Shown here one piece after another: positions 32,046 to 42,380 of a stretch of 64,000 bases of DNA (positions within the stretch are counted from its first letter, which is position 1; every line of letters begins with the position of its first letter). Origin of the DNA: Clostridia bacterium 41_269 (GTDB lineage Bacteria > Bacillota > DTU086); assembly GCA_001508005.1 (NCBI GenBank), contig LGEZ01000009.1:2493-66492 (forward strand), written 5' to 3'. The translations under genes were made by a program, and so were the position numbers. The notes under the pieces are model-generated. The model ran no database searches, was not told where the DNA came from, and was given only the letters and a program-made list of their open reading frames with translations.

Positions 32046-32534
32046 ATGATGAATTTTTTTAGTTTTTTTAAATGGATTGAAAGGTTTTTAATAGCATGCA
32101 CAGTGCTTAGTTTTGCCCTTCTTATTTTAGGTCAATTTATGATGATCATAAATCCTGTGGATTTTTATATGAATTTTGCTGAAAAGATTGAAGGAAAAAC
32201 AGTTAATTTTTATGAAGAATTTCCTGAAATGAGGGTTGCTTCCCAAAATTTCCAGTCAGTTTTTGCCACTATAACGATAAGACTTGAAAACTTTTCATCC
32301 CTGGAAAAAGCAGTTCTTCTAATAAATGGGAAAGAAGTGGCGGATTTTAGAAAAAAGCAGGTTACAGTTAAGGTTTCACAGGGTGACGTGCTGGCAATTG
32401 ACGGTACATACTATGTTCATGATTTGACGTTTAAAGTTGTTTCTGTTTCTGAAAATGTTAGACAACCCAAAAAAGGGCAGATTGTTAATGTAAGTGGAGA
32501 TGTTGTTGTGATTGGCCCAGTGGAGCTTAAATAA
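32046..32534 (+). CDS. hypothetical membrane-anchored protein
   Basis: N-terminal TM helix. No known motifs. Confidence 0.3.
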   Translation: MMNFFSFFKWIERFLIACTVLSFALLILGQFMMIINPVDFYMNFAEKIEGKTVNFYEEFPEMRVASQNFQSVFATITIRLENFSSLEKAVLLINGKEVADFRKKQVTVKVSQGDVLAIDGTYYVHDLTFKVVSVSENVRQPKKGQIVNVSGDVVVIGPVELK

Positions 32535-32593: not shown

Positions 32594-33007
32594 ATGAACT
32601 ACGGCAGCAAAGGGGTTGCAGCTACAGCGATTCAAATGGCTCTAACAGAAAATAGGGAGGAAGAAGCAAAACTTAAAAAAAAGTTTGCTGAAATTGGTAT
32701 TGCAGCAGCAGCTGTGGATTATGGTGGTGAATTTATAAATTCAGTTAAAAAAATAGTTGAAAGAGCGGTTGTAGCAGCCAAGAGGGAAGGAGTAATAAAG
32801 GAATCCCATTCTGAAGAAGGTGCTGTAGCTGGTGCTACGAGGGAAGCCTTATCTCAGATAGTACCCAAAGCTCTGGGATTAAATGTAGGTGGAAAAATTG
32901 GTATTGCCAGATATCAGGATCATATATCAGTGGCAATATTTTTTGGAATAGGCCTTCTGCATTTAGATGAAGTTGCCATAGGACTTGGACATAGAGCCAT
33001 TGGTTGA
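32594..33007 (+). CDS. HutP-family RNA-binding protein (anti-terminator family)
   Basis: Aligns by eye with B. subtilis HutP across conserved blocks: GVI.ES..E.HA..AT.EAL and the C-terminal H..VAI..G.G.....E.A.G.GH. About 137 aa, like HutP. Confidence 0.6.
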   Translation: MNYGSKGVAATAIQMALTENREEEAKLKKKFAEIGIAAAAVDYGGEFINSVKKIVERAVVAAKREGVIKESHSEEGAVAGATREALSQIVPKALGLNVGGKIGIARYQDHISVAIFFGIGLLHLDEVAIGLGHRAIG

Positions 33008-33032
33008 TTTCTGTATAGCTGGGGGATAAAAA

Positions 33033-33398
33033 ATGATTACAGTTGGTATACGGGGAGCTATAACAGTGGAAAAAAATACAAAGGAGTGCATTTTTGCTTC
33101 CACGAAGGAACTTGTCTCAGAAATTATGAAGCAGAATAACTTAAAGGAGCAGGATATTGCCAGCATTATTTTTACTGCAACCCCTGATCTCGATGCAGCC
33201 TTTCCTGCAGCTGCCGTCCGCGAAATGGGTTTAAATGAAGCTGCACTTTTGGATGCTGTAGAAATGAATGTTAAAAGCAGTATGCCTAGGGTAATAAGAG
33301 TGCTGATGCACGTAAATGTAAAAGAGGGTTTCAAACCAAAACATATTTACTTAAAAGAAGCAGTAAAATTAAGATCTGACATGTTTTGTAAAAAATAA
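33033..33398 (+). CDS. aroH: monofunctional chorismate mutase, AroH class
   Basis: MITVGIRGAITVE... and ATPDLDAAFPAAAVRE match B. subtilis AroH. 121 aa. Confidence 0.8.
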   Translation: MITVGIRGAITVEKNTKECIFASTKELVSEIMKQNNLKEQDIASIIFTATPDLDAAFPAAAVREMGLNEAALLDAVEMNVKSSMPRVIRVLMHVNVKEGFKPKHIYLKEAVKLRSDMFCKK

Positions 33399-33440
33399 AC
33401 AGATTTAAGCGTAAAAAAAAAGTCATATTTGTTTTTTTTT

Positions 33441-33474
33441 TTGAAAATTGCCAGCATTTATTATGTGTGATAAT
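33441..33474 (+). promoter_or_regulatory. candidate promoter of the trp operon leader
   Basis: TTGAAA / TTGCCA -35 candidates and TGtGATAAT extended -10. Spacing is not ideal for either pairing. Confidence 0.3.
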
Positions 33475-33498
33475 ATAGCAGCAAACTAAATATGGGAA

Positions 33499-33546
33499 GA
33501 GTTGAGCTGAGATGAGATGAGATGAGGGGAGAGGAGCTGAGATGAG
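33499..33546 (+). promoter_or_regulatory. trp leader RNA-binding site: 10 consecutive GAG triplets with 2-nt spacers (TRAP-type)
   Basis: GAG at 33499, 33504, 33509 ... 33544, exact 5-nt period. Lies between the candidate promoter and the terminator. Confidence 0.6.
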
Positions 33547-33565
33547 GCTGGTGGTATTGGAGCGA

Positions 33566-33597
33566 AACCAGTGCTCATTTTAGCACTGGTTTTTTGT
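33566..33597 (+). terminator. trp leader attenuator terminator
   Basis: AACCAGTGCT-catttt-AGCACTGGTT perfect 10 bp stem plus TTTTTTG. An alternative antiterminator pairs ATGAGgCTGGT (33542-33552, includes GAG 10) with ACCAGtgCTCAT (33567-33578). Confidence 0.7.
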
Positions 33598-33631
33598 TTC
33601 TTTGATTAAAAAATTTTTAGGAGGCTGGTTC

Positions 33632-35116
33632 ATGAAACCTGGTTTAAATGAATTTTTAACTTTTGCCCAAAGGGAAAATATTGTTCCAGTATGGGATGAG
33701 ATAGATATATACGATGAGACTCCCATATCGGTTTTTGAAAAGATTGCTGATGAAAGAGAGATTTCATATCTTCTGGAAAGTGCTGATGCAGGAGAACAGG
33801 GTGCACGATATTCATTTATGGGTATTAAACCCATTGCCAAATTCAGTGCAAAAGGTTCCCTTATTAGAATAGAGGAGGAAGGATATGAACAAAAATGTTT
33901 TGGTAATCCCACAGCTCTATTAAAAAATTTTTTAAAAAAATATTATATCGATAACCAAACTGTAGATGATGTGGTGAATTTTTGCGGCGGCGCTGTGGGA
34001 TATCTATCTTATGACTGGGTTCGTTACCTTGAGAATATACCCATAAAGAGCATAGATGATCTGGGGCTGCCCGATGGTATGTTTATTATTTTTAAAATAA
34101 ATCTTTTGTTCGATCATCTAAAAAATACTTTAAAAATCATAGTTTTGACTAAAACAGAAAAAAATCCTGAAATGGAGTACAAGCAGGCCATATCTTTGAT
34201 AAACAGTATAAAAGAAAAAATTTACCGCCGTAATTGCTTAAAAGGCAGCGTAGAAATTAACGGGTGCGTTCCCAACATTATATTTTCTGCTACTTTAAAC
34301 CATGATGATTATGTGAAAGGTGTAAAAAAAATCCTTGAATATATAAGAGCAGGAGATATATTTCAAGCTGTTCTTTCAACCCGTCTGGAAACAAAAGTTG
34401 TGGAAAGCCCTCTAAAAATTTACAGATGCTTAAAAATGATCAATCCTTCTCCCTATATGTTTTACCTGAATTATCCAGGATTTCAGCTCATAGGTGCATC
34501 CCCTGAGATGCTTGTGAAAGTTGAAAAAGGAAAAATATACAATAGGCCCATTGCAGGCACCCGCCCCCGAGGCAGTAGTGAAGAAGAAGATAAGATCCTT
34601 GCGGAAGAACTTAAAAAGGATCCCAAAGAAAAGGCAGAACACATCATGCTTGTAGATCTTGCCAGGAATGATGTGGGTAGGACTGCGCAGTTTGGAACTG
34701 TTAGGGTGCCTGAACTGATGGCTGTTGAAAAATATTCCCATGTAATGCATTTAGTGTCTCTTGTGGAAGGCAGACTTGCAGAAGATAAAAATGCTGTGGA
34801 CGCCTTAATGGCATGTTTCCCTGCTGGTACTGTATCTGGGGCTCCTAAAGTGAGAGCCATGGAAATTATAGAAGAGCTGGAACCTGTGAGAAGGGGGCCC
34901 TATGCTGGATCGGTTGGTTATTTTAGTTTAAATGGAGATATGGATACCTGCATAACCATTAGGACTATCCTAATTAAGGATAATAGAGCCTATGTCCAGG
35001 TAGGAGCTGGAATTGTAGCAGATTCTAAACCTGATAAAGAATATGAGGAGTGTATTAATAAGGGAAAAGCGTTGATTTCAGCCCTGTATGCTGCTGAAAG
35101 GAGGGCTATTTCATGA
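33632..35116 (+). CDS. trpE: anthranilate synthase component I
   Basis: Chorismate-binding motifs (AGTRPRG, LLESADAGE). ATG 33632 after an AGGAGG RBS. Confidence 0.9.
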   Translation: MKPGLNEFLTFAQRENIVPVWDEIDIYDETPISVFEKIADEREISYLLESADAGEQGARYSFMGIKPIAKFSAKGSLIRIEEEGYEQKCFGNPTALLKNFLKKYYIDNQTVDDVVNFCGGAVGYLSYDWVRYLENIPIKSIDDLGLPDGMFIIFKINLLFDHLKNTLKIIVLTKTEKNPEMEYKQAISLINSIKEKIYRRNCLKGSVEINGCVPNIIFSATLNHDDYVKGVKKILEYIRAGDIFQAVLSTRLETKVVESPLKIYRCLKMINPSPYMFYLNYPGFQLIGASPEMLVKVEKGKIYNRPIAGTRPRGSSEEEDKILAEELKKDPKEKAEHIMLVDLARNDVGRTAQFGTVRVPELMAVEKYSHVMHLVSLVEGRLAEDKNAVDALMACFPAGTVSGAPKVRAMEIIEELEPVRRGPYAGSVGYFSLNGDMDTCITIRTILIKDNRAYVQVGAGIVADSKPDKEYEECINKGKALISALYAAERRAIS

Positions 35117-35691
35117 TACTGGTCTGCGATAATTACGACTCTTTTACCTATAATCTCGTCCAGTATTTAGGTGAACTGGGTGCGGAAACCTTTGTTTTCA
35201 GAAACGATGAATTGAGACCTCAAGATTTTTGTAATCTGGAACAGTATGTCAGGGGCGTTGTAATTTCTCCTGGCCCCGGAAAACCTGAGGATGCGGGTAT
35301 ATCTATGGATCTGGTGAGATATTTTGCAGGCAGGGTACCGGTTCTGGGAATATGTTTGGGCCATCAGTGCATAGGCAGGGTTTTCGGGGGAGAAATTGTG
35401 CCTGCAAAAGCCCTTTTTCATGGAAAGACTTCTGAAATCAGGCATGATGGAAAAGTGCTTTTTGAAAATGTTTCAAACCCTTTTACAGCGACCAGGTATC
35501 ATTCCCTGGTCATTGACAGAAAGAAAATTCCTGCATGTCTGGAGGTGACTGCAGAGACGGAAGATGGAGAGGTAATGGGGGTGAGGCACAGGGATTTTAA
35601 AATTGAGGGTCTTCAGTTTCATCCTGAATCTATTTTGACTTTAGAGGGAAAAAAGATAATATCAAATTTTTTAAACATGTGTGCTGATTAG
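35113..35691 (+). CDS. trpG: anthranilate synthase component II (glutamine amidotransferase)
   Basis: GATase class I motifs (GICLGHQ catalytic Cys, HPES). Confidence 0.9.
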   Translation: MILVCDNYDSFTYNLVQYLGELGAETFVFRNDELRPQDFCNLEQYVRGVVISPGPGKPEDAGISMDLVRYFAGRVPVLGICLGHQCIGRVFGGEIVPAKALFHGKTSEIRHDGKVLFENVSNPFTATRYHSLVIDRKKIPACLEVTAETEDGEVMGVRHRDFKIEGLQFHPESILTLEGKKIISNFLNMCAD

Positions 35692-35726
35692 AATAGCTGA
35701 GATCAGCTGAGATTAGCTGAGAGGAG
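35689..35726 (+). promoter_or_regulatory. NAG triplet repeats (8 at exact 5-nt period) spanning the trpG stop and trpD RBS
   Basis: UAG, UAG, GAG, CAG, GAG, UAG, GAG, GAG at 35689, 35694 ... 35724. The last two form the GAGAGGAGG SD of trpD (GTG 35735). Confidence 0.5.
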
Positions 35727-35734
35727 GAATTCAA

Positions 35735-36747
35735 GTGAGAGAATACATTGCAAAAATTTCCGATGGGGTTGATCTGACAGCATCTGAGGCTGAGCGTGCA
35801 ATGGAAATGATTATGGATGGAAATGCTACAGCTGCGCAAATAGGTGCTCTGCTTATGGGACTCAAACTAAAGGGAGAATCTTCTCAGGAAATTACTGGTT
35901 TTGCAAGGGCTATGAGGCGTCGAGCTTTGGGGTTTAAAGTACCCATGGATGTTGTGGATACCTGTGGTACTGGGGGGATTATGCAGAAACTTTTAATATA
36001 TCCACTGCTGCTGCTTTTGTGGCAGCTGGTGCAGGAGTTCCAGTAGCCAAACACGGAAACAGATCAGTGTCAAGCCGGTGTGGAAGTGCAGATGTCCTTG
36101 AAAGGTTGGGAGTAAATATTGACCTTGAACCGAAACATGCGGAAAAATGCCTTCGCGAAATAGGAATTTCCTTTCTGTTTGCTCCCAGATACCACAGAGC
36201 AACAAAAAATGCAATGGGACCAAGAAAGGAGTTGGGTATAAAAACTATTTTTAATATTTTAGGACCGTTAACCAATCCAGCGGGTGCAAGCAGTCAGGTT
36301 GTAGGTGTATTTGATCCTGAATTGACCGAGACAATAGCGGAGGTTCTTGCTGCACTGGGCACGAAAAGGGCATTTGTTGTCTGCGGTAGTGATGGTTTAG
36401 ATGAAGTTACGATAACGGGAACCACCAGGATTACAGAATTAAATGCAGGTTTTATTCAGACCTATGATTTCGATCCCAGGGAACTGGGCTTTAAATTAAG
36501 GAACATTGAAGATTTAAAAGGCGGTGATCCAGAGAAAAATGCTGAGATTCTTTTGAACGTGCTTGAAGGGGAAGAGGGGCCCAAAAGGGAAGCGGTGGTT
36601 TTGAATGCTGCCTTTGCCATTCTTGCCGGAAATAAGGCTTTTTCCCTTAAGGAAGCTGTAGAAAAAGCTGAGCACAGCATCGACAGCGGGGCAGCGCTAA
36701 AAAAGCTTTACGATCTGAAAAAATTTACAGGAAGCTGTGTTGCATAA
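35735..36747 (+). pseudogene. trpD: anthranilate phosphoribosyltransferase, frame broken in a G6 run (35972-35977)
   Basis: Upstream ORF ends ...[13 protein letters not shown]. Adding one G gives [41 protein letters not shown]..., continuous with ORF 36019..36747 and matching the GTGGD motif. Confidence 0.85.
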
Positions 36748-37526
36748 TGCTGGATAAGATTATTATCAGTAAAAAAAAGAAACTTAAAGAGATTGTTTCC
36801 ATTGATTATCTTAGGAAACTGGAAAACAAAATTTTAAAACTACCTTCTCCAAAAGATTTCAAAGAAAGCTTAAAGAGAGAAAAGGGCGAGAAAATAAAAA
36901 TTATTGCTGAAATCAAGCGTGCTTCCCCTTCTAAAGGCTTAATTGCAGAAAATTTTGAACCCAAAAGATATGCAGGTGAATATGAAAGGGCAGGAGCAGC
37001 AGCGGTTTCTGTGCTTACTGAGGAGGATTATTTTCTAGGAAGTTTGATGCACCTGAATGAGGTGAGATCTGTCTGCAGTCTTCCTATTCTGAGAAAAGAT
37101 TTTATCCTTCACCCTGTTGAGATTTACGAAGCTCGTGCCTATGGATCAGATGCAGTGCTTTTAATAGTAAAGATTCTGGATAAAAAGAGTTTAAAAGCAC
37201 TGCTTAATCTAACAAGGGAACTTGAGATGCAGGCTCTTGTGGAAGTACATTCAGAAAAGGAGCTGGAATTAGCCCTTGAAGTTGGAGCTGAAATAATAGG
37301 TATTAATAACCGCAATCTTGAGGATTTTACTGTTGATTTTAGGGTTACAGAAAGGCTTGCTGAACTCATTCCAAATGATAAAGTAGCTGTTAGTGAAAGC
37401 GGGATTAAACATGCCCGTGAAGTGCGTTTTTTAGAAGCCTTGGGGATAGATGCAATTCTAGTTGGGGAAACCCTGATGCGAAGTCCCGATCCTTATCAAA
37501 CTTTAAAAAATTTTTTGGAGGAGTAG
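36747..37526 (+). CDS. trpC: indole-3-glycerol phosphate synthase
   Basis: TIM-barrel IGPS motifs (IIAEIKRASPSKG, GINNRNL). Confidence 0.9.
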   Translation: MLDKIIISKKKKLKEIVSIDYLRKLENKILKLPSPKDFKESLKREKGEKIKIIAEIKRASPSKGLIAENFEPKRYAGEYERAGAAAVSVLTEEDYFLGSLMHLNEVRSVCSLPILRKDFILHPVEIYEARAYGSDAVLLIVKILDKKSLKALLNLTRELEMQALVEVHSEKELELALEVGAEIIGINNRNLEDFTVDFRVTERLAELIPNDKVAVSESGIKHAREVRFLEALGIDAILVGETLMRSPDPYQTLKNFLEE

Positions 37527-37531
37527 GGATT

Positions 37532-38167
37532 ATGGTAAGGGTGAAAATATGCGGTATAAAAACCTTTGAAGATGCCCGGTATGCAGTGGAGTATGGTGCC
37601 CATGCCCTGGGATTCGTATTTTGTGAAAGCAGAAGAAGAATAGACCCCCTGATGGCCAGGGAAATTATAAGGTCCATTCCGCCCTTTGTGATGAAAGTGG
37701 GTGTTTTTATGGATCAAGATTTGGAATATGTTTTAAGTGTTGTGGATTTCTGCGGTTTGGATGCCGTTCAGCTTCATGGCACTGAAACCCCGCAGTACTG
37801 CAGCCAATTTGAAAAACTGCCCTGCCAGGTAATAAAGGCTTTCAGAGTTAAAGATGATGGTGTAATTGATGAAATTAAAAAATATAAAGTGGATGCCTAT
37901 CTGCTTGACAGCTGGGTCCGGGGCAAACCTGGGGGAACTGGGAAAAAATTTGATTGGGACATAGCAAAAAATATTGTAAAGAAAAGCAGCAGGCCGGTCA
38001 TTCTTGCAGGGGGGCTAAATGAAAAAAATGTGGCAAAAGCGGTAATGGAGGTTTCTCCCTATGCTGTGGATGTAAGCAGTGGTGTTGAAAGTTCTGGAAA
38101 GAAAGATAAAAACAAAATAATTCGTTTTATGAATGAAGTGAGGAGGATTAATCTTGCAATTGCATAG
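37532..38167 (+). CDS. trpF: phosphoribosylanthranilate isomerase
   Basis: MVRVKICGI... PRAI N-terminus. About 210 aa. Confidence 0.85.
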
Positions 38168-39344
38168 ATCGGCATACTTTGGAGAATACGGTGGACAGTT
38201 TGTGCCTGAAACTGTTATGCCCGCTTTAAAGGAACTCGAGGAAGAGTACTATAAAGCTGTGAATGATGAAAATTTCAAAAGGGAACTGAATTATTATCTT
38301 AGGGAATATGTGGGCAGACCCACTCCGCTCTATTATGCTGAACGGCTGTCAGAAAAGCTTGGAGGAGCAAGAATATATCTCAAAAGGGAAGATCTGAACC
38401 ACACGGGTGCCCACAAAATAAACAATACCATAGGTCAGGCACTCCTCGCATTAAGAATGGGAAAAACAAGGGTGATTGCGGAAACGGGTGCTGGGCAGCA
38501 TGGGGTTGCTACAGCAACTGCGGCGGCTTTGTTTGGGCTTCAGTGCCAGATATTTATGGGAGAAGAAGATATGAAGCGGCAAGAGCTTAATGTTTTCCGT
38601 ATGGAACTATTGGGAGCCGAGGTGGTGCCCGTAAAAAGCGGAACCCGTACCTTAAAGGATGCTACCAATGAAGCTATTAGGGATTGGGTTACCAACGTTA
38701 GAAATACCCACTATATAATCGGTTCAGTGGTAGGCCCCCATCCATATCCCACTATTGTGAGGGATTTCCAGAAAATTATAGGGGAAGAAATTAGAAAGCA
38801 GTTTCAAGAAATAGTGGGCGGCTGTCCCGATTATATCATTGCTTGTGTTGGAGGCGGCAGTAATGCCATGGGTACTTTTTACCCCTTTATTGAGCAGAAG
38901 AAGGTACGGCTGATAGGAGTTGAAGCTGCGGGCTGTGGCATATCAACAGGAAAACATGCTGCATCCTTAAGTGCAGGCAGTCGGGGTATTCTCCATGGTA
39001 CCCTAACATACATTCTTCAGGATGAGTTTGGGCAGATTGAACCTGCTCATTCCATATCTGCAGGTCTTGACTACCCGGGAGTAGGTCCTGAGCATGCTTT
39101 TTTAAAAGACAAAGGGCGTGTGGTATATACTTCAGTAACGGATTATGAAGCCCTTGAGGCTTTTCATCTGCTGGCCAAAACTGAAGGCATACTGCCTGCC
39201 CTGGAGAGTGCCCATGCTTTAGCTTATGCAGCGAAAATAGCTCCTAAACTGAAAGAAGATAATACTATCGTTGTTACACTGTCGGGAAGAGGGGATAAAG
39301 ATGTACAGTGTGTGCTGGAACAGAAAAGGAGGAAAGGAAATTGA
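38154..39344 (+). CDS. trpB: tryptophan synthase beta chain (TrpB1, operon copy)
   Basis: [19 protein letters not shown]-lysine and GGGSNA motifs. Confidence 0.9.
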
Positions 39345-40198
39345 AGTCTTTAAAAAAAGAACTGATCCCGGCATCAGCTGAAGAAAGAGGTATATCGCGG
39401 GGAGAAAGACTGGAACAGCTTTTTTATGAAAAGAGAGAAATTAATGAGAAGGTATTAATAATTTACTTGTGTGCTGGCTATCCTGATTTGGATTTCAGCA
39501 GAGAACTTATTTTGACTGCTGTAAAAGCTGGGGCTGATATTATAGAAGTTGGGATTCCCTTTTCCGATCCCCTGGCAGACGGACCTGCGATACAGCATGC
39601 ATCACAGCAGGCCCTTCTCAAAGGAATGAATGCTGCCAAGGCTTTAGAGATGGCTGCTGATATAAAAAAATGCACAAAAATTCCACTTTTGCTGATGTCT
39701 TACTACAACCCCATTTACAGATACGGACTGGAAAAATTCTGCGGAGATGCTTTTAAGGCAGAAGTAGATGGTATTATTGTCCCCGATCTTCCTGTGGAAG
39801 AATCTGAGAAGCTTGTATCCATAACAAGAAATTTTGGGCTGGGATTTGTTCCTCTGGTTTCACCCACCAGCACTTTAGAAAGGCTGAAAAGAATATCTAA
39901 AACTGCACTGGGCTTTATATACTGTGTTTCCACAACAGGCACTACGGGCAGCACCATTCGTTCCTTTGGAGATGCAAAAGAAATGGCTGAAAAGCTCCGC
40001 AGCATTACTCAAAAACCCACAGCCCTTGGCTTTGGTATCGAGGGACCGGAACATGTTAGAATGGCAGCTCCTATGTTTGATGGGATTATTGTAGGAAGTG
40101 CAGTTATTCGAATTATTGAACATTTTAAAAAAAGCAGAGAATCCTGTTTTAAAGAAGTGGGCGAATTTATTTCTTCACTTAAAAAAGCATGCAGATAA
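39341..40198 (+). CDS. trpA: tryptophan synthase alpha chain
   Basis: [22 protein letters not shown] motif. TTG start at 39341 overlaps the trpB stop, with an AAGGAGG RBS. An alternative ATG is at 39308. Confidence 0.85.
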
Positions 40199-40370
40199 GA
40201 AAATTTTGTATTGTAACAATTTAAAACCTGTGCTACTATACCCTTTAAAAGAGTTTTAAATATTGATTTAATTTGAAATTTGGGGCAGAACGGCGTAGGC
40301 TTTTGTACAGTTTTTTGGAAGATTGGTAGGACGGTAGGGGCAGATGGGATTATACTGCCGTTTTGCCGTA

Positions 40371-40405
40371 ATCACTCCTACCTTTCTTCAAGGAGTGATT
40401 TTTTG
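40371..40405 (+). terminator. intrinsic terminator/attenuator hairpin in the trpA-DAHP synthase intergenic leader
   Basis: ATCACTCCT-11 nt loop-AGGAGTGAT 9 bp stem plus T5-7. Upstream GGTAGG copies (40326, 40334) can pair with CCTACC (40377-82) as an antiterminator. Confidence 0.5.
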
Positions 40406-40506
40406 ATTTCCCGTCTGCTTAATAAAAAAAGGGGGTGTAAAAAAAGAAATTTTATTAGTATTTCCCGGATTTATCAATACTACGGAAGAACGGAGGTTGA
40501 TTTAAA

Positions 40507-41535
40507 TTGATTATTGTAATGAGCCGTGAGGCAACTGATGAACATATTGAAAATGTAAAGAGGCGCTTGGAAAAAGAAGGGTTCAGCATCCATCTTTCAA
40601 AGGGTGTTGCCCGTACAGTTATAGGAGCCATAGGCGACAAAACAAGGATTCCTTTACTGGCTTTAGAAGCAATGCCTGGAGTTGAAAAAGTGGTACCAAT
40701 TCTTCAGCCTTATAAGCTTGCGAGCCGTGAATTTAAAGATGAACCCACAATTATTAAAATAAGAAATGTTGAAATTGGAGGAGATACCATTCACGTCATA
40801 GCTGGTCCCTGTGCTGTGGAAAGCAGGGAACAGTTGCTGGAGACAGCACACATGGTTAAGGAAGCAGGAGCTACTCTGCTTCGGGGAGGGGCTTTTAAAC
40901 CCCGTACTTCACCATACAGCTTTCAGGGTTTGGGAGAGGAAGGGTTGAAAATTCTTGCTGAAGCCAGAGAAGAAACAGGTCTTCCCATTGTTACCGAAGT
41001 AATGGATATAGAAAGCCTCCCTGTGGTTTATGAGTACACAGATGTTTTTCAAATTGGGGCTAGAAATATGCAGAACTTCAATCTGCTTAGAAAAGTAGGT
41101 GAAACGGATAAACCGGTGCTTTTAAAAAGGGGACCCAGCGCCACCATTGAAGAATGGCTTTTAGCCGCTGAATATATTATGTCCTCGGGAAATTATCAGG
41201 TTATTTTATGTGAAAGGGGCATTCGTACCTTTGAGCAGTTTACGCGCAATACATTGGATTTAAGCGCAGTGTGCGCGGTAAAAATGCTGTCGCACCTTCC
41301 GGTGATTGTTGATCCCAGCCACGGAACAGGAAAATGGCAGTTGGTGTCTCCCATGTCCAGGGCTGCAGTAGCAGCAGGAGCAGATGGACTTATAATAGAA
41401 GTTCATCCAAATCCCAGCGAAGCTTTATCTGATGGTCCACAATCCTTGACACCAGACAATTTTAGAGATCTTATGAACGAATTGATACAAATTGCCCCTG
41501 TGCTGGGAAGAAAAATGGCGGTGGATCGTGAATGA
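40507..41535 (+). CDS. aroF: 3-deoxy-7-phosphoheptulonate (DAHP) synthase, type I-beta with N-terminal ACT/ferredoxin-like regulatory domain
   Basis: About 80 aa N-terminal regulatory domain then KDO8PS-like DAHPS core ([24 protein letters not shown]). Thermotoga-type architecture. Confidence 0.85.
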
Positions 41536-42380
41536 AGGCTGCTTATTTGGGCCCATGGGGGACTTTTTCGGAGGAAGCAGCCTGCCGATGGATGGAACGA
41601 ATGAAACTTTCTGGAGAGTTGATTCCCTGTACCTTTATTCCTGAAGTTTTTATCATGGTAGAAAAAAAAGAAAGCCGATGTAGGAATTGTTCCCGTGGAG
41701 AATTCCATTGAAGGAACCGTGGGGTTATCTCTGGATTACTTAAAAAATTTTCCCAACCTTTATATTATAGGGGAGGTAGTTTTACCCATCCGGCACTGCA
41801 TTGCTGTTAAAAATATGAAAAACTTTGATTTTACCGAAATAAAATATATATATTCCCATTCCCAAGCTCTGGGGCAGTGCAGGGAGTTTTTAGAAATAAA
41901 TTTTCCGGGGTGCGAATTGAGGCAGACTTCAAGCACAGCTGAAGCTGCCTCAATCGTAGCTTCCGGATTGTCAGGGCAAGCTGCAGCCATCTGTTCTCCC
42001 TTTGCAGCAGAGAAATACGGTCTTACGATTATTGCCTCGGATATACAGGATTATCCTAATAACAAAACCAGATTTTTTGTAGTGGAAAAAAAGCCTTTAA
42101 AATTTTTAAATGACAAAGGACCAGGCAAAACTTCTATGGTTTTTTCCCTTCCTGAAGACAGTCCTGGTTCCCTTTATATGGTGCTGAAATATTTTGCAGA
42201 AGAGAAAATTAACCTGACAAAAATAGAATCAAGGCCGGCAAAAAAAGAGCTGGGGCACTATTTTTCTATTTGGATTGTGAGGGGTATGCTTGGGAAGAGC
42301 CCCTTGCTTCCGTAATAGAAAGGCTTGAGGAAAAAACATTGTTTTTAAAAATTTTAGGCTCATATCCCCGAGCCTGTTAG
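41534..42380 (+). pseudogene. pheA: prephenate dehydratase with C-terminal ACT domain, frame broken twice (A8 at 41662-41669, T5 at 42261-42265)
   Basis: [17 protein letters not shown]-terminus in one frame. Removing one A gives ...MVEKKKADVGIVPVENSIEGTVG. Adding one T gives ...GHYFFYLDCEGYAWEEPLASVIERLEEKTLFLKILGSYPRAC*. Confidence 0.8.

Follow-up and report, generated by a model that had tools for sequence, protein, structure and literature searches.

A probable TRAP-type transcription attenuator in the trp leader of Clostridia bacterium 41_269

In Bacillus subtilis, the protein TRAP (MtrB) binds 11 (G/U)AG repeats that the trp leader carries and, by blocking an antiterminator, allows a terminator to form, and the attenuator itself is weak (PMC3064811). 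The HutP family was founded on a B. subtilis protein that is activated by an amino acid, histidine, and then recognizes NAG triplets in the single-stranded RNA of the hut leader (PMC12591593). Here we examine a leader with regularly spaced GAG triplets that precedes the operon trpE-G-D-C-F-B-A in Clostridia bacterium 41_269, which represents an uncultured spore-forming clostridial lineage of ~40% G+C; the window referred to throughout is the whole 64-kb stretch of contig LGEZ01000009.1 that was analysed, and positions are those of the window. Judging from the sequence and its relatives, it is likely that this leader is a tryptophan-responsive, TRAP-type transcription attenuator of trpEGDCFBA.

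The GAG-repeat leader of the trp operon

The leader carries ten GAG triplets that start at 33499, 33504, 33509, 33514, 33519, 33524, 33529, 33534, 33539, and 33544, an exact 5-nt period in which the nine spacers (UU, CU, AU, AU, AU, GG, AG, CU, and AU) are each 2 nt long. An original prediction made for this locus had rested on these ten triplets with invariant spacing between 33499 and 33546, and a regular-expression scan together with shuffling bore it out: a six-triplet version of the pattern had an expected count of 0.00 in 100 dinucleotide-preserving shuffles of the window, and the array is the sole (G/U)AG chain of seven or more triplets on either strand of the 64 kb scanned. A possible eleventh GAG (Table 1) is also found in the closest relative, locus L009. 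The promoter-like site upstream places the predicted transcription start at ~33483, about 15 nt before the first triplet, and in the minimum-free-energy fold the transcript so predicted stays unpaired over its first 36 nt. At the equivalent position, leaders from Moorella, Thermincola, and other lineages have a TTGACA promoter.

Downstream of the array lies an intrinsic terminator whose stem comprises 12 pairs, including A-U and G-U extensions of a perfect 10-bp core (33566-33575/33582-33591), and whose tail reads UUGUUUCUUU. Folded alone, this hairpin has a free energy of -21 kcal/mol (z -4.3), and a scan of 33000-34000 found no second terminator-like site. The minimum-free-energy fold of the whole leader is the antiterminator and not the terminator; it is a helix of 17 bp with one bulge, the 5′ strand of which is GCUGAGAUGAGGCUGGU. 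Because the antiterminator 3′ strand covers the terminator 5′ arm and loop, the two structures are mutually exclusive. Both had been anticipated from the sequence: the perfect 10-bp stem with its U-tract was recovered and found to extend to 33564-33593, and the antiterminator pairing proposed for 33542-33552/33567-33578 lies within the 17-bp helix (33536-33552/33567-33584) of the minimum-free-energy fold. The cis features that define a TRAP attenuator are all present, namely the triplets, the position in a trp leader, the terminator, and an antiterminator that shares bases with it. The match to B. subtilis TRAP attenuation that had been proposed is likewise supported by the number of triplets, their (G/U)AG identity, their spacing, and the antiterminator overlap, all of which are conserved.

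Under the mechanism we propose, transcription would begin at the predicted start, and with no protein bound the antiterminator would fold, such that RNA polymerase continues into trpE. With tryptophan in abundance, a Trp-loaded TRAP ring would wrap the ten or eleven GAG triplets, including the two that reside in the antiterminator 5′ strand; the terminator hairpin and U tract would then form and transcription would halt before trpE. Both the binding of TRAP to the triplets and the role of tryptophan as the signal are inferred.

One may postulate that a different mechanism operates on the same terminator, such as ribosome-mediated attenuation at a Trp-rich leader peptide, a tRNA-sensing T-box, or a GA-binding factor of the CsrA type. 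The codons TGG TGG TAT TGG do stand just before the terminator, at 33549-33560, but no ATG opens a reading frame that reaches them (the nearest one in frame, at 33522, is followed by a TGA stop at 33543) and they are unconserved, the same bases forming the inner antiterminator helix in other leaders. For a T-box the ~120-nt leader is too short, and no Rfam family reached its gathering score in the window; within 33380-33660, noise aside, no family matched at E ≤ 1. The region is GA-rich, which would suit a CsrA-like factor; however, UAG swaps freely with GAG in relatives, a pattern that fits TRAP and not the GGA motif. We regard these mechanisms as extremely improbable, and TRAP-type attenuation remains the preferred reading of the leader.

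Table 1. Features of the trp leader and its surroundings in the window, with the double-cluster leaders of four other loci
Feature	Positions	Strand	Basis and remarks
HutP-family gene	32594..33007	+	Pfam HutP PF09021, full length, E 2.8e-51; two genes upstream of the leader
aroH (chorismate mutase type I)	33033..33398	+	Pfam CM_1, E 1.6e-43; directly upstream of the leader
Sigma-70-like promoter	33448..33476	+	-35 TTGCCA, 17-nt spacer, extended -10 TG-n-TAATAT; consensus scan
Ten GAG triplets, presumed site for the Trp-activated TRAP ring	33499..33546	+	Sequence reading and regular-expression scan
Antiterminator 5′ strand	33536..33552	+	Minimum-free-energy fold; holds the last two GAG triplets
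Possible eleventh GAG	33560..33562	+	13 nt past the tenth, in the antiterminator loop; putative role
Intrinsic terminator (attenuator)	33564..33602	+	Stem 33564-33593, loop CAUUUU, U tract
Antiterminator 3′ strand	33567..33584	+	Spans the terminator 5′ arm plus loop; minimum-free-energy fold
trpE ribosome-binding site AGGAGG and ATG	33619..33635	+	AGGAGG 33619-33624, ATG 33633
trpE-G-D-C-F-B-A operon	33633..40198	+	Open reading frames and Pfam domains
Double-cluster leaders of other loci	L019 4625-4738; L029 6850-7024; L030 4695-4838; L062 1820-1950		

Conservation of the leader and distribution of TRAP

To compare the leader across genomes we used loci that encode a homolog of the HutP-family protein of the window (hereafter the HutP-like protein). 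A scan with one genome per species gave 80 such loci, 88 having been examined in all, and the leader comparison comprised 18 leaders, that of the window and those of 17 other species-level genomes. The original prediction had staked itself on the repeats being conserved in related genomes, and the leader is indeed kept in these 17 other species. They include a Moorella group (Neomoorella stamsii, N. sulfitireducens, N. carbonis, a Moorella sp., and a Moorellaceae metagenome-assembled genome (MAG)), two Thermincola, Desulfofundulus thermosubterraneus, a Carboxydocellales MAG, a Pelotomaculum sp. (L068), Paradesulfitobacterium ferrireducens, and further MAGs. All loci with downstream trp genes have (G/U)AG triplets followed by a terminator of the form CCAGUGCUCAUUUGAGCACUGG-U(n) just before trpE. 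Trp genes lie downstream of the HutP-like gene in 15 of the 62 loci with enough flanking sequence, and a (G/U)AG repeat leader is present in all 15; a 70-nt scan registers it in 13 as a chain of 5-10 triplets. Among the HutP-like loci that lack trp genes, the best chain is at most four triplets in 46 of 47 and five in the remaining one.

The chain is 7-11 triplets long in 14 of the 18 leaders, mostly 9-11 with a median of ~10. Extra upstream triplets are carried by L019, L029, L030, and L062; the loose chain reaches 15-21 in L019, L029, and L062, and two clusters of ~10 and ~11 triplets can be discerned by eye in L030. These double clusters may correspond to two bound protein rings or to a second regulatory site. 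Over the 18 leaders there are ~150 GAG and 49 UAG triplets (~75% and 25%), with spacers mostly of 2 nt; TRAP is known to prefer such a mixture, with either G or U as the first base of the triplet. When the best fold of the region was computed without the terminator 3′ arm, every one of the 18 leaders paired its last one to four triplets (usually GAGAUGAG) with CUCAUUU and the 5′ arm of the terminator. In the alignment of these leaders the terminator, in which both partners of four pairs have changed (A-U has become G-C in 6 of the 18 sequences, for instance), is paired in 93% of cells and exceeds all slid controls, and the outer antiterminator helix is 79% paired. The window's own leader is nearly identical to that of L009, with triplets, terminator, and promoter undecayed. 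Given that the leader is conserved and that triplets, antiterminator, and terminator are kept with compensatory changes, the cis element would appear to be both functional and old.

TRAP itself is a compact and highly conserved family with 4,559 clusters at 90% identity, and members are named in Clostridia and Clostridiales MAGs, Desulfotomaculales, Desulfotomaculum sp. 46_80, the isolate Pelotomaculum schinkii, Desulfitispora, Halanaerobiales, and Limnochordia. In anaerobes the neighborhood of mtrB runs dnaE, (pgpA), mtrB, (a 62-64-aa open reading frame), (accDA), pfkA, and pyk, as in L185, L187, L190, L194, and L204. A canonical TRAP, P0512, is encoded in a dnaE-mtrB-pfkA locus on LFTO01000038.1 of the MAG DTU086 (GCA_001513335.1, "Clostridiales bacterium DTU086"), which also has a HutP-like-aroH cluster on LFTO01000011.1 (L016). 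DTU086 is the second-closest relative of the source organism among the compared loci, with amino acid identities of 82% for KARI, 82% for the HutP-like protein, and 73% for DAHP synthase. An identical TRAP (P0512) is encoded on metagenome contig L168, whose tetranucleotide correlation with the window (r 0.94) is the highest of the non-self loci. At the genus level, Pelotomaculum has both TRAP and the leader (L068). Four loci in which mtrB lies directly upstream of a trp operon outside Bacillus (L095, L116, L130, and L143) served as positive controls, and each has 7-11 (G/U)AG triplets followed by a terminator. Taken with the conservation of the leader, these data suggest that the genome of Clostridia bacterium 41_269 probably encodes TRAP, at a dnaE-pgpA-mtrB-pfkA locus.

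The original prediction held a TRAP-type leader to be notable in Clostridia, and here it overstated the rarity: TRAP homologs are widespread, and no fewer than 17 further clostridial species share the leader. Because both TRAP and the leader are widespread in anaerobic Bacillota, their presence in a clostridial genome is less exceptional than supposed. Our results would extend a textbook mechanism, the study of which has been confined almost entirely to Bacillus and Geobacillus, to a wide set of anaerobic, spore-forming Clostridia, with Moorella, Thermincola, Desulfofundulus, Pelotomaculum, Paradesulfitobacterium, and MAGs from oil reservoirs and digesters among the taxa reached. Since the position of the leader between aroH and trpE and its logic are conserved, the mechanism may be older than the split between Bacilli and Clostridia, as the sequence comparison suggests.

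Several results weigh against this interpretation and call for caution. The statement that the window has no mtrB-like open reading frame holds, the best tblastn match having an E of 4.8, and tblastn found no mtrB within 10 kb on either side of the window; the sequence thus searched, ~81 kb (positions 82,887-164,232 of the 168.9-kb JGI contig Ga0136450_100000004, to which, as to NCBI DOLA01000005.1, the window was assigned by exact protein matches), is a small part of the genome. None of the 88 HutP-like loci contains mtrB. A scan for TRAP in metagenomes, which covered up to 600 candidates and 80 loci, recovered no contig from samples 3300010240 and 3300010237, in which this organism occurs; with that coverage the negative is weak. 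In addition, no TRAP from Moorella or Thermincola was among the matches listed, the lists consisting mostly of Bacillaceae. A 5′ stem-loop of the B. subtilis type, which is accessory and not defining, is absent from the minimum-free-energy fold of the leader. Lastly, a frameshift in trpD raises the possibility that tryptophan synthesis, and its regulator with it, is in decay in the population.

This frameshift splits trpD into open reading frames of 103 and 242 aa (35735-36747); it is a -1 shift near 35972-35977, where, compared with L009, one nucleotide is missing from a G6 run within the GTGGD motif, and the split is called identically in five assemblies (two from JGI, two from NCBI, and one from Logan). 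It is either a real pseudogene or a consensus error shared by the assemblies. An alternative scenario follows in which the leader is an orphan or relic, its cis element intact, while TRAP and perhaps tryptophan synthesis have been lost and the leader defaults to the antiterminator, leaving the operon unregulated. The recurrence of the frameshift within a conserved motif in five independent assemblies favors this scenario, as do pheA and spoIVB, which appear split as well, and the failure to find TRAP in the 81 kb that were read. The leader, however, is perfectly regular and near-identical to that of L009, with no decay of triplets, terminator, or promoter; moreover, a frameshift in a G6 run could be an artefact of assembly or consensus, and 81 kb is a small fraction of the genome. 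We consider a relic unlikely, and a working TRAP-type attenuator the better explanation.

Other candidates for TRAP were considered and set aside. P0387, P0433, P0391, P0539, and P0535 belong to organisms other than the source of the window, and a 76-aa open reading frame at 40280-40510, although of the right size, has no Pfam match and no similarity to TRAP and was called spurious. A literature search on TRAP in Clostridia or Moorella found nothing relevant. Homologs of TRAP are also named beyond Bacillota, in Synergistales and Acetomicrobium, and the 62-64-aa open reading frame that often lies 3′ of mtrB outside Bacilli is conserved and belongs to no Pfam family. In two of the TRAP-linked operons a second GAG run lies over the ribosome-binding region of the first gene, which encodes DAHP synthase (L130 8475-8503 and L143 ~1915-1945); this suggests translational control besides attenuation in those operons. 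No second GAG run was found before trpE in the window.

The neighboring HutP-family gene and the trp operon

The window does contain a member of a NAG-binding family that the original prediction overlooked, the HutP-family gene two genes upstream of the leader. Its product is recorded as HBT20502.1, from a UBA MAG labelled "Peptococcaceae bacterium", and as KUK10751.1, from "Clostridia bacterium 41_269". The NCBIfam equivalog model of HutP, NF002838, has no match to it and scores B. subtilis HutP at 7e-76; the gene is not linked to hut genes, its neighbors being aroH and trp genes, and sequence and profile searches of the PDB with the protein did not reach HutP. B. subtilis HutP holds Mg2+ and L-histidine through His73, His77, and His138. 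In a weak hhalign alignment to that protein (probability 3.9%), the HutP-like protein has an invariant Gly at the first two metal-site positions and a His at the third. Its AlphaFold model has a predicted local distance difference test score of 46, from an alignment that held only sequences at least 72% identical. The HutP-like protein is a distinct subfamily and not an orthologue of the hut regulator, as far as sequence comparison can tell.

Across several clostridial classes (Moorella, Thermincola, Pelotomaculum, and Syntrophomonas) the HutP-like protein is 72-95% identical, and aroH adjoins its gene in 66 of 74 loci, with or without trp genes after it. A literature search on HutP-like proteins found nothing relevant. 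Irrespective of the leader, a conserved HutP-family gene beside aroH is a separate lead in the regulation of aromatic amino acid synthesis. Directly upstream of it in 47 of 80 loci is a gene for a protein that in the window has 162 aa (32046-32534, +), with an N-terminal hydrophobic segment, a β-rich C-terminal part, and no Pfam or NCBIfam family, such that this gene, the HutP-like gene, and aroH make up a conserved triad.

The presence of this gene raises the question of whether the HutP-family protein, and not TRAP, could be the amino-acid-activated reader of the GAG triplets that forces termination, and so a protein with the fold of HutP that does the work of TRAP. The protein belongs to the Pfam HutP family, whose founding member binds triplets of this kind; the order HutP-like, aroH, leader, trpE is kept in the source organism, Moorella, Thermincola, and Paradesulfitobacterium; the high identity across classes implies strong constraint; the lack of orthology to the hut regulator leaves room for another function; and TRAP was not found in the ~81 kb of the source genome that was read. 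The gene tracks aroH, however, and not the repeats, for 47 of the 62 flanked loci have the HutP-like gene and aroH but lack both trp genes and a repeat leader of similar extent, the best chain there being 2-5 triplets. No replacement of TRAP can be argued for DTU086, which has both the HutP-like protein and canonical TRAP, and Pelotomaculum has both at the genus level. The same leader, furthermore, is found in TRAP-positive genomes with no adjacent HutP-like gene. Canonical HutP recognizes NAG triplets in two groups of three, spaced by 4 nt (PMC12591593), and ten or eleven triplets at 2-nt spacing fit an 11- or 12-mer ring and not a hexamer (PMC12591593, PMC3064811). On balance we find it quite improbable that the HutP-family protein stands in for TRAP. 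A narrower version, in which a HutP-family paralogue beside aroH reads the TRAP-style array in the branch of Moorella, Thermincola, and 41_269, alone or together with TRAP, appears to us very improbable; if true, it would represent a second, unrelated fold able to detect an aromatic amino acid and to bring about termination by binding to NAG repeats. We retain TRAP as the likely reader of the array.

The leader opens a gene cluster for aromatic amino acid synthesis. The trpE call that starts from the ATG at 33633 in NCBI record DOLA01000005.1 yields a 494-aa product, and genes for DAHP synthase, pheA, tyrA, and aroA come after trpA. The gene order of B. subtilis is also aroH-leader-trpE. Between aroH and the promoter (33399-33447) there is just an A9...U12 stretch; because no G+C-rich stem is present there, transcripts of the HutP-like gene and aroH may run on into the trp leader, a behavior known from the aroFBH transcripts of B. 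subtilis.

The TrpE of the window is 46% identical to that of L009 (33633-35691 compared with L009 7029-8504), versus 71-87% for TrpD, C, F, and B, and L009 has no trpG, while the two leaders are nearly identical. The lower identity of TrpE behind a near-identical leader suggests that the trpE(G) genes were swapped behind a conserved attenuator. Elsewhere in the region, pheA (prephenate dehydratase, 41532-42315) consists of two overlapping open reading frames of 59 and 206 aa, whereas in Moorella the enzyme is one 286-aa chain that includes an ACT domain. The spoIVB gene, a short way upstream of the window, also appears split (L102 3329-4703), and several broken genes are thus found in one region. 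The gap of ~300 nt between trpA and the DAHP synthase gene (40199-40506) has no Rfam match (best E 0.71); it may house a promoter or a regulatory RNA for the aro, phe, and tyr genes.

Comparison with known systems

The closest described counterpart of this leader is that of the B. subtilis trpEDCFBA operon. Both have about 11 (G/U)AG triplets at 2-3-nt spacing, both lie between aroH and trpE, and in both the 3′-most triplets are part of the antiterminator 5′ strand, which shares bases with the downstream intrinsic terminator. The B. subtilis leader has seven GAG and four UAG triplets with mixed spacers, whereas the array of the window is all GAG with nine spacers of exactly 2 nt. The leader of the window also differs in that it lacks the 5′ stem-loop and has a strong, canonical terminator; its operon includes trpG, and its host is a clostridial MAG in which mtrB was not located in the ~81 kb read. 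The regular (GAGNN)n site and strong terminator would provide a clean natural substrate for studies of TRAP from thermophilic anaerobes.

The four TRAP-linked operons used as controls (L095, L116, L130, and L143), which belong to other anaerobic Bacillota, resemble the window in having 7-11 (G/U)AG triplets with mostly 2-nt spacers and a terminator after them. They differ in that mtrB is adjacent, the first gene is that for DAHP synthase or trpE, and there is no upstream HutP-like-aroH pair; in some, a further cluster of triplets covers the ribosome-binding site, and their terminator is unrelated to the CCAGUGCUCAUUUGAGCACUGG consensus.

Some likeness can also be drawn to HutP and the hut operon of B. 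subtilis, which is another switch between a protein and NAG triplets in a single-stranded leader that responds to an amino acid, and a HutP-family gene lies near the leader of the window. The logic is reversed, however: HutP prevents termination, whereas in the leader described here protein binding should cause it. The two sites are also built differently, that of HutP, which lies in a terminator, from two groups of three triplets with 4-nt spacers and that of the window from 10-11 triplets with 2-nt spacers.

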